From Escherichia coli (lineage in GTDB: Bacteria; Pseudomonadota; Gammaproteobacteria; Enterobacterales; Enterobacteriaceae): 64,000 bases of DNA. The notes under the pieces are model-generated. The model saw only the letters and a list, made by a program, of their open reading frames with translations. It was not told where the DNA came from and made no database searches. Position numbers and translations under genes: made by a program. This document shows positions 15,166 to 17,472 of the stretch, in pieces (position 1 is the first letter of the stretch; every line of letters starts with the position of its first letter). Location of the stretch: assembly GCF_003018235.1 (NCBI RefSeq), contig NZ_CP027438.1; one strand, 5' to 3'.

Positions 15166-15501
15166 ATGAACAGGAAATATTATCTTAATAATATGTGGTG
15201 GGGATGGTTTATGGGTGGGTATACTCTGTATATGTCATGAGATTATGAGTTTAAATACAGATTGCTGTTCTGGTGTATTTCTCTCTGCGGAATGGTTTTG
15301 TATCCGGTTGCCAGATGGTGTATTGAAAATACTGCCCTGAAATTTACCCGGCCTCATTTCTGGAATAGCGGTTTTTTTGCTGATACTCCCGGAAAAATGG
15401 GATTACTTGCGGTTTATACGGGTACTGTTTTCATATTATCTCTTCCGTTAACTCTGATATATATTCTTTCTGTTATCATAAAAAGGCTGTCTGTAAGATA
15501 G
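15166..15501 (+). pseudogene. iia: colicin Ia immunity protein gene with premature in-frame TGA at codon 25
   Basis: MNRKYYLNNMWWGWFMGGYTLYMS-stop-DYEFKYRLLFWCISLCGMVLYP...; TGA at 15238-15240 where the immunity protein has Trp; remainder intact to 15501. Confidence 0.7.
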
Positions 15502-15522
15502 ACAGCCTGTCTTATATATTAT
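15502..15522. terminator. shared terminator hairpin between convergent iia and cia
   Basis: AGACAGCCTGTCT palindrome between the two stop codons. Confidence 0.4.
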
Positions 15523-17402
15523 TTAAATGCCCCAGAACTTATTCGCTTTTTCCACAAGCGTTTCATCAATCAGAGCACCGGTGACAGCCATCAGTAAACC
15601 ATACCCGATAATGCCTAAAGCGCTTCCGGTAAGAATACTGAAGACCAGAGCAACAAGAGCCGTTGCGGCATTACCTGCTATGATGGTTTCTGTTTTAACA
15701 AAAAAAGGACGCCAGTTATCTGTCCGGGCAGCCTTACCAAACTCAGTGATCCAGTCAGCAAAATTTGTAATTTTTCCTGCATATCCCAGTCCGCGACTGA
15801 ACCTGTTCAGATTAGACGATATATCAGACAGCTTCACAGACTCAAGGGCTGCGGCAATCGCTGCACGATCTTTTGCATTAATTTTTTTGTTAATGTCAGC
15901 CCGGTACTTTTCATACGTTTTTAATGCCTCTTCAACATTACGTATTTTCTTCCCTTTAGCCTGCCCGGCCATCTCTCTGGCTAACTGCTCAGCTTTTGCA
16001 CCATATTTTTCTGAAACTGATTTCAGGAACTCTGTTGTGAAATTAATTGCGTCTTTCGTTGCCTTCAGTTCATCCTGTTTTCTTTTCTCTTCCGCTATCT
16101 TCTGATTGATGCCGGCAAGCTGGTTACGGATATTCTCTTTTTCCTTCAACAGGGCATTAAGAGCGTCATTTGCATTCTTTTGCTCATTTGTTCTGGCACT
16201 GAGGTTATTTCTCGCCGAATTTACCGCAGATTCAGCAGAGGTGATTTTATTTCTGGCATCAAGCAATCTTTGCCGTAACTTATCCCATTCAGCAACTTCA
16301 GCATTATAAATTTTCTTGTCACCTTCCACATCCTCTGTCACCACCGGATTCCGGTCATTCAGAATATTGCGTTATAGTCCAGACCGGAATGGGTCAGAAG
16401 ATAATTCAGGTTTGCACGGTTATCAATGACCGCGCTGGTTGTGATTTTTATCGTACCGGCAAATCTCGGATCACCACTCACAACAATAGAATGATTTGTT
16501 GATGAACGCCCCGGGAAATTTTCAGGGGAAACTATCGTTTTGCCGTCAGGCGTGTTTTTCTGTTGCGTCAGCTGTTGTTCAGCTCTGGTTAATGCATTAC
16601 GGGCCGTGTTAAGCGATTCCGTCACCGAACTGAGTTTATTCCGGGCCTCTGAAATGGCCCTGTCATTCCGTGTCTGCTGCCCGAGCAGACGGGCCTGTTG
16701 TGCATCAAGAACGGCAAGGGCTGCCCCGCCATTTTTTTCCAACTCTGACAACCGCGTGTCCAGAATACCTTTTCTGCGCTCGTATTCAGCAAGCATATCA
16801 GCGGCCTTCTTGTCTGCGTTCTGCGCATCCTTCTGCCGTTTTTCAGCCTGTTCGATTAACGACCTGGCCTCGCGGGGAGATATACGAAGAGAATCAGCAT
16901 CAGCAAACAGCATCCGGCTCTCTGTATGCAGGCGGAGGGCATCATATCCGGCGATTTCAGTACGGAATCCGTATTCTCTCAGCTCTGCCTGCAGGAGTCT
17001 GAACTCCTGTCGTGTAATATCAGCGGTATCTGCGTTTCCGGCACGGAGTGTTTTCAGTGTGTTTTCATCTTTTTCCCTTGCAGCAATCGCCGCAGAGAGG
17101 CGTTTTCCGGCTTCAGTACGTTTATTCTCATTCTCTTTCTGCTGCGCGCTGAGCGTGTTTTTGTACGCTGTGATTTCCTTGTCCCTTTTTTCGATATCAC
17201 TCCGGGTTGGGGAATCATCGACCCACTCGTTTCCACCCCAGATGGTTTTGTTCCCGAAGGAATTCCATGCAGGCGGGGTACCATGAAAGACATCGACACG
17301 TGGAGGGTTTACATAAATATCAACGGCCATAATTTCATGGCCATCTGAATCATACCCCAGCGATTCTGCACCGGGATTTGTAATACGTACAGGGTCAGAC
17401 AT
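15523..17402 (-). pseudogene. cia: colicin Ia structural gene with a 1-bp frameshift
   Basis: N-part ORF 16359..17402 (MSDPVRITNPGAESLGYDSDGHEIMAVDIYVNPPRVDVFHG...) and C-part ORF 15523..16344 ending in the pore-forming hairpin (...AGNAATALVALVFSILTGSALGIIGYGLLMAVTGALID...KFWGI); frames rejoin if one nucleotide is added near 16372. Confidence 0.85.
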
Positions 17403-17443
17403 TCGGTATCTCCTTCATCCTCTGAGGAAAACAAATGAATTAA

Positions 17444-17472
17444 CTGCTTGCATATATGGATACATATACAGT
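17444..17472. promoter_or_regulatory. tandem LexA (SOS) boxes of the colicin promoter
   Basis: Minus-strand TACTGTATATGTATCCATATATGCAAGCAG, two overlapping CTGT-N8-ACAG-like boxes 30-60 bp upstream of cia start. Confidence 0.55.

Follow-up and report, generated by a model that had tools for sequence, protein, structure and literature searches.

The window analysed here, a stretch of 64,000 nucleotides from Escherichia coli (NCBI RefSeq assembly GCF_003018235.1, contig NZ_CP027438.1), carries a colicin module that consists of cia, a gene for a pore-forming colicin of the Ia family, and the convergent immunity gene imm. In all likelihood, this SOS-regulated toxin gene and its immunity partner, borne on a bundlin-encoding (bfp-type) plasmid of the IncFII type, have recently been turned into a double pseudogene. 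The structural features of the family that we tested are all present except for continuous reading frames, and the module is thus a pseudogenised member of the colicin Ia family. Colicin modules are a textbook system for the ecology of toxins and immunity, with its killers, immune non-producers and sensitive cells. For this module, public data hold every intermediate on one plasmid backbone, along with an independent, parallel double loss; the value of the locus lies in this complete allelic series.

The two lesions and their recurrence

The cia pseudogene occupies 15523..17402 on the minus strand. Direct reading and the listing of open reading frames (ORFs) both give its length as 1880 nt, one short of a multiple of three, versus 1881 when intact. 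The initial annotation had placed a single missing nucleotide near 16372, and this claim was borne out: at 16372..16373, the plus strand has two Ts where intact alleles have three, reducing codon 344 from AAA to AA. In an alignment with nine coding-intact alleles, this base is the only length difference in cia, and inserting an A in silico restores a colicin of 626 amino acids. As it stands, the 626-codon frame breaks at codon 344 and meets a stop four codons on. The N-terminal ORF that results (16359..17402, minus strand) runs for 347 residues from its ATG to a terminal THSGLDYNAIF, and its exact product is WP_249926977.1. It comprises the translocation (T) domain, the outgoing helix and about 60% of the receptor-binding (R) domain before it ends in N-A-I-F-stop. 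Near its start it reads DGHEIMAVDIY, in which EIMAV, at residues 23-27, is the TonB box of colicin Ia. The remainder of the colicin, i.e. the return helix and the pore-forming domain (RNILNDRNPVVTEDVEG...ANKFWGI), lies in a second open frame of 282 codons that follows a TAA (15523..16371, minus strand). The earliest candidate starts in this frame are GTG codons at 16347 and 16344, and no Shine-Dalgarno motif was obvious upstream of them on reading the sequence. Gene callers render it as a 272-residue product, WP_225932702.1, which is found on 140 contigs.

Comparison with known proteins places the break within the molecule. Over its residues 23-624, P0028, the closest intact colicin among public proteins, aligns with the crystal structure of colicin Ia (PDB 1CII; 1264 bits); it differs from the repaired window colicin at four residues. 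Matching P0028 to chain B of PDB 2HDI, a construct of the R domain that binds Cir, delimits this domain as residues 281-385; the frameshift at codon 344 falls inside this domain and puts the return helix and the whole channel domain out of frame. In the N-terminal ORF, the Pfam family PF11504 (Colicin_Ia) is matched by residues 282-344 with 144.3 bits (cut-off 25), the match being shortened by the frameshift to profile positions 1-63 of 72. The colicin pore-forming domain, PF01024, is matched with 174.7 bits (cut-off 23.4) in the C-terminal frame, which is out of frame with the start codon. A scan of NCBIfam with both colicin fragments, the intact relative and both immunity alleles returned no specific family, only weak coiled-coil noise from SMC models. 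No second copy of cia or imm was found within the window, and no lysis gene was seen with the module.

The imm pseudogene (15166..15501, plus strand) is convergent with cia and lies directly downstream of it. Its position, its length of 111 codons and its sequence fit the 111-residue membrane immunity protein of the family, except that the frame is broken at codon 25. There, as the initial annotation had also said, a TGA at 15238..15240 stands in place of a Trp codon. The cause is a single G>A substitution at 15240; this position is G in all 12 comparison alleles, and the codon is TGG in every intact relative. Apart from this change (W25*), the window's imm is identical to the intact 111-residue protein P0031, which is found on at least 1000 contigs and matches PF03526 with 28.1 bits (cut-off 25). 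A full-length immunity product is not expected from the window's copy. Between the two genes lies a GC-rich inverted repeat (15484..15508) with an 11-pair stem on the plus strand and a 9-pair stem on the minus strand; by consensus match, it resembles a terminator on both strands.

Could both lesions be errors of sequencing or assembly in a module that is truly intact? The frameshift does affect a short run of one base, one homopolymer elsewhere in the window shows a private discrepancy, and the nearest complete records (CP076710.1 and CP076711.1) are noisy long-read assemblies with many coding sequences flagged as frameshifted. Against this stands the recurrence of the same 1-nt deletion and the same G>A substitution, the latter not a homopolymer artefact, in independent assemblies from separate public runs and several NCBI drafts. 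Both lesions occur together in SRR4299825, SRR31488172, GCA_052551885.1 and GCA_051203415.1. GCA_011908985.1, which has W25*, was counted as a fifth independent assembly with both lesions, although it lacks 15613-18435 and, with it, the frameshift site. The SRR4299825 contig, from another run, differs from the window by two substitutions and one indel over 11.5 kb, and SRR31488172 is identical to the window over 3.6 kb except for one homopolymer base at 17724. Further, the public collection has the exact 347-residue product on 63 contigs (68 blocks), and many of these are Logan assemblies of single sequencing runs. An error of sequencing is therefore effectively excluded on this comparison, and the initial view of the lesions as genuine decay holds.

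The private discrepancy, at 17724, lies in the intergenic stretch between the cia promoter and an 89-residue ORF. Here the window has three Ts and SRR15278003, SRR4299825, SRR31488172, ERR11813008 and CP076711.1 have four; either a private mutation or a residual homopolymer assembly error may explain it.

Order of loss and identity of the allele

An intact form of the module shares both backbone and gene neighbourhood with the window. In ERR11813008, the colicin is an intact 626-residue protein exactly equal to the repaired window product, and an intact 111-residue immunity gene stands alongside. Across the module, this locus and the window disagree only at 15240, in the extra T at the frameshift site, and at 17452 and 17505, two single-nucleotide polymorphisms (SNPs) that lie near the promoter. 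Judged by this identity, the intact ancestor of the window's module persists on its own backbone. The frameshift without W25* is present in SRR15278003, CP076710.1, CP076711.1 and the GCA_047902325.1 group; in the last of these, which comprises 13 further similar places, cia has a second 1-nt deletion at 16732. Conversely, among the inspected loci, W25* was observed only together with the frameshift lineage. GCA_011908985.1 matches the window at 100% identity as far as 15612, W25* included; beyond this point, about 2.8 kb (15613-18435) with most of cia and its promoter are missing. By their lesions, these alleles are a series on one backbone, from intact to frameshift only, to frameshift plus W25*, to deletion of cia. 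The sequences support the view that the frameshift is older than the nonsense codon and that immunity was lost after the toxin, because frameshift-only relatives exist and W25* is nested in the frameshift lineage. No lesion beyond the frameshift and W25* was found in the window's module, and its inactivation is, on these alleles, recent.

Immunity has been lost in parallel elsewhere. On the same backbone, GCA_044595315.1 has a 74-bp deletion in cia (16708-16781) and a nonsense codon, C41*, in imm (15288 C>A), without the frameshift at codon 344. On another backbone, where cia is truncated by the insertion sequence IS1, imm has lost either 5 nt (L021, CP115335.1) or 1 nt (L023 and L025). With W25*, this makes four independent immunity lesions, all beside an already dead cia, and no immunity-dead locus with an intact cia was met among the inspected loci. 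The initial proposal that immunity can be lost only once the toxin is dead gains support from these lesions and from the frameshift-only relatives. Together they provide sequence-level support for immunity being dispensable only after loss of the toxin, and they supply natural alleles ready for measuring the cost of the toxin and of an orphan immunity gene.

The initial annotation had labelled the gene colicin Ia. Its assignment to the Ia family stands, whereas the identification with textbook Ia does not: by sequence comparison, the window allele is a variant haplotype of the family. Relative to the canonical allele of IncI1 plasmids (pSCU-204-2), the window immunity protein differs at 10 of 111 residues and the repaired colicin at 11 of 626, seven of these in the pore domain at 545-615. 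Synonymous divergence from the canonical allele is 0.22 in imm and 0.11 in cia codons 531-626, as against 0.017 in cia codons 1-530; in the divergent immunity region, the ratio of nonsynonymous to synonymous divergence (dN/dS) is 0.2-0.3. In the variant haplotype, the pore-domain changes co-vary with those in the immunity protein. This pattern points to a recombined, functional immunity cassette under purifying selection and not to decay. The divergent cassette spans 15100-15802 of the window, i.e. imm, its upstream region and the last ~95 codons of cia, and is joined to a conserved 5' part of cia; at 15142-15164, upstream of imm, it is almost wholly different from canonical alleles.

We considered whether the differences from textbook Ia had instead accumulated by decay after inactivation, and rejected this possibility: intact alleles share them, and dN/dS is 0.2-0.3 with high synonymous divergence. 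In addition, nine substitutions set the window allele apart from nine other intact alleles, three of them nonsynonymous and six synonymous (P=0.007 against neutrality). All nine are also present in intact ERR11813008 and in GCA_044595315.1, and therefore accumulated in a working gene. The intact copy and these allele-specific substitutions both bear out the earlier claim that the module was once functional.

Upstream of cia on the minus strand lies a sigma-70 promoter (17476..17504) with a -35 element TTGACA at 17504-17499, a 17-nt spacer and a -10 element TAAATT at 17481-17476 (10 of 12 consensus matches). Just downstream of the -10 element, at 17444..17471, are two overlapping LexA-type boxes that read, in the sense of the gene, CTGTATATGTATCCAT and CCATATATGCAAGCAG; they were recognised by the LexA consensus and are predicted to place the cia promoter under SOS control. 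The ribosome-binding site is an AGGAG at 17410..17414, identical in 13 of 13 aligned alleles, as are the -35 and -10 elements and the distal LexA box. The tandem boxes had been described as intact. This is true of the distal box in every allele; the proximal box differs from coding-intact alleles at 17452, in its centre, where central positions also vary among the intact alleles themselves. The intact operator reflects recency and lack of time, not retained function or maintained regulation, because almost nothing else changed after inactivation.

Consequences of inactivation and alternative explanations

The presumed workings of the module today follow from the nature of its lesions. Upon DNA damage, LexA would free the unchanged promoter, and cia would be transcribed. 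Its product would be a 38-kDa N-terminal fragment with the TonB box, the T domain, the outgoing helix and ~60% of the R domain. This fragment has no channel domain and should be harmless. At most, traces of the C-terminal fragment would be made, and these would be incompetent for import. A pore domain without T and R domains should be unable to enter target cells, and would be non-toxic from the cytoplasmic side; pore-forming colicins endanger their producer from the outside only. With no colicin released by kin, imm would be superfluous for self-protection and could be inactivated by drift or selection. That is, imm could be lost because a lineage that releases no colicin needs no self-protection, and the same argument has been offered for why colicin Ia is hard to lose (PMC10761095). 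The price of its loss would be sensitivity to the cognate colicin of other strains. We thus expect the host to be non-colicinogenic and no longer specifically immune, barring resistance at the receptor or TonB or low-level read-through of the UGA codon.

Several points weigh against this account. Immunity might persist via read-through of the UGA by tRNA-Trp, which would restore the original residue, and a second immunity copy could reside on another replicon of the host; indeed, the related strain CFIAFB20140388 has an intact imm copy on its IncI1 plasmid. The death of the module is predicted from sequence, and the host's actual sensitivity to colicin Ia is beyond what the window shows. The order of events is drawn from allele nesting in a handful of inspected loci and not from a full phylogeny. 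Finally, 20 similar places that were grouped with the truncated-colicin matches were taken as a group rather than individually.

A broader version of the first of these points holds that both lesions are bypassed, the toxin through frameshifting, reinitiation or a two-piece coiled-coil colicin and the immunity protein through UGA read-through, such that the module is attenuated rather than dead. The geometry of the break lends this idea some appeal. In-frame GTG codons of the C-terminal frame follow 11 nt after the stop of the N-terminal ORF (16361-16359), and both long helices are still encoded, the break being at the distal tip of a hairpin-shaped molecule (1CII). UGA is the leakiest stop codon of E. 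coli, and its misreading as Trp would give back residue 25. Very little immunity protein is needed for protection: leaky, uninduced expression of Ia immunity still conferred ~3 logs (PMC10761095). Other features speak against a bypass. The frameshift site has no slippery heptamer, only a run of two As; with no slippery motif or long homopolymer there, we rejected programmed frameshifting and transcriptional slippage. No Shine-Dalgarno motif was seen ahead of the GTG codons, and the split of the R domain, with loss of residues 344-353, should abolish binding to Cir. Further, in relatives, immunity and subsequently the whole of cia disappeared at no evident cost, an argument against any active toxin being made, and an additional frameshift has built up in the GCA_047902325.1 group. 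We therefore regard a bypass as highly improbable.

A separate question is whether the losses were adaptive. In the lineage with the bundlin plasmid, first the colicin, induced by SOS, and later its membrane immunity protein, left as an orphan, might be costly to carry, so that knock-outs were selected repeatedly. A single, closely related backbone has indeed sustained two independent knock-outs of cia (the codon-344 frameshift and the 74-bp deletion), two of imm (W25* and C41*) and a later 2.8-kb deletion; two more imm frameshifts stand beside the IS1-truncated cia on another backbone. Otherwise there is little divergence (two SNPs per 11 kb between the window and SRR4299825), and over-expressed Ia immunity carries a ~10-fold cost in competition (PMC10761095). 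However, the loci with parallel losses were retrieved with the truncated immunity product as the query, a sample biased to broken genes; therefore, these loci alone cannot show selection for loss. Also, the intact immunity allele is present on at least 1000 contigs, many of them with orphan copies, and a plasmid that is itself degenerate, with remnants of insertion sequences and a truncated tra region, fits relaxed selection. On balance, adaptive loss seems doubtful. A more ambitious reading, which joins positive selection to shed the module with a specificity of the variant haplotype separate from that of classical Ia, and which would make the series a natural, fully resolved case of the trajectory from killer to immune cheater to sensitive cell that population models of colicins predict, strikes us as unlikely. 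We thus return to recent inactivation, in which the toxin was lost before immunity, as the favoured account.

Relation to known systems, plasmid backbone and neighbouring genes

The closest described relative is the colicin Ia operon of ColIa/IncI1 plasmids. Both have the same gene order, with a convergent colicin and 111-codon imm, the same promoter, dual LexA boxes and ribosome-binding site, and the repaired window colicin is collinear with PDB 1CII from end to end. The window departs from this operon in that both genes are inactivated, the immunity haplotype is another one, and the carrier is a bundlin plasmid of the IncFII type rather than IncI1. The regulatory region and the first two thirds of the gene are common to the window and colicin Ib (cib/imm of ColIb-P9-type IncI1 plasmids), whereas the window's C-terminal domain and imm are of the Ia type and not the Ib type. 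Plasmid matches that cover only positions 970-2421 of the query at ~97.7% identity, with the pore domain and imm outside the match, are most likely colicin Ib alleles, given this pattern of coverage.

A pseudogene of the same variant allele, with the same 1-nt deletion, is present in E. coli O158:H23 strain CFIAFB20140388 (NZ_CP076710.1 and NZ_CP076711.1). Over 2421 bases, two differences separate NZ_CP076710.1 from the window. CP076711.1 belongs to the plasmid type of the window and contains numerous additional indels of the kind left when long reads are assembled without polishing. Both records differ from the window in having TGG at imm codon 25 and A at 16436, where the window has T. The kind of decay described here is already known and constitutes no new kind of system, because the annotation pipeline PGAP already flags the frameshift in this near-identical record, labelling the gene in CP076710.1 "colicin-like pore-forming protein, frameshifted". 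Our literature search for colicin Ia together with frameshift returned nothing on cia pseudogenes, and no paper was found for O158 H23.

The end state of such decay, an orphan imm beside a truncated colicin, is likewise familiar from IncF plasmids. The window differs from these in that the whole module is collinear and bears two point lesions in place of an insertion sequence or a deletion, and thus each step can still be read. In the plasmid database PLSDB, complete colicin Ia/Ib loci are much scarcer than partial or orphaned ones: of 2372 plasmids with a match, 337 have at least 80% of the locus and about 2000 hold only a part, many just imm. C-terminal colicin fragments of 119-135 residues occur on hundreds of contigs, and the truncation of cia by IS1 in L021, L023 and L025 is of this sort. 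For annotation, two warnings follow. This plasmid type should not be scored as colicinogenic, and the call of a 69-residue "colicin E1 immunity protein" is an unreliable sign of an intact or a broken gene.

The 69-residue call, made on 43 contigs, takes Met43 as its start, also in records whose 111-codon frame is open throughout, as in the GCA_047902325.1 group (locus L020, 4001-4210). It looks like an artefact of start-site choice, and one that obscures the state of the gene. We had considered this product as a marker of the nonsense allele and rejected it, given that the GCA_047902325.1 group is annotated with 69 residues despite its open 111-codon frame. The NCBI name of the variant immunity protein is "colicin E1 family microcin immunity protein", not "colicin 1A immunity protein".

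The window as a whole is ~99.5% identical, with rearrangements associated with insertion sequences, to NZ_CP076711.1, an IncFII-type plasmid. We also considered the IncI1 plasmid NZ_CP076710.1 as its counterpart and rejected it, as only ~4 kb (13630-17614) are in common. The replicon features in the window are an IncFII RepA gene, the CopA RNA and hok/sok; Rfam gave no match inside the colicin locus, only CopA and sok in the replicon region. At 61294-62019 on the plus strand lies a gene for bundlin (PF05307, 98 bits). The gene after it, annotated as a TcpQ-family protein in CP076711.1, continues a bfp-type type IV pilus operon that runs off the end of the window. With bundlin, IncFII RepA, CopA and hok/sok together, the replicon is therefore a bfp-type plasmid that resembles the enteropathogenic E. 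coli adherence factor (EAF) plasmid.

In CFIAFB20140388, variant allele and frameshift alike are shared between the IncI1 plasmid NZ_CP076710.1 (5080-9065) and the IncFII-type plasmid that resides with it. Canonical Ia, the usual form on IncI1 plasmids, is ~3% different from the variant. Either gene conversion between the two plasmids or cross-polishing in a noisy long-read assembly would explain the shared allele. NZ_CP076710.1 has about a dozen coding sequences marked as frameshifted, most of them at 16.9-27 kb, in a region partly homologous to the window plasmid.

Three conserved genes without an assigned function (13630-15037) accompany the colicin module on backbones of both the IncI1 and the IncF type. 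All three are intact in the window: an 86-residue ORF, a 196-residue ORF (14080..14670) and a DUF6404 gene (14690..15037; PF19942, 129 bits), the last of which is split in some relatives (L014 and L017).

Elsewhere in the window, an ORF of 191 residues (26245-26820, minus strand) begins with MRKLTFNECNCIYGG, a colicin V-like double-glycine leader, followed by G. It lies directly upstream of an intact export system on the same strand, composed of an HlyD-type adaptor (24583-25866) and an ABC exporter with a C39 peptidase (22442-24586). The ORF matches no Pfam family. From its leader and its position, it may encode a large exported toxin of bacteriocin-like character that is so far uncharacterised and could prove more novel than the colicin pseudogene itself. 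About 15 homologues of ~190 residues, with 49-99% identity, are found in E. coli, Klebsiella, Yersinia and Salmonella, and all are annotated as "hypothetical protein".

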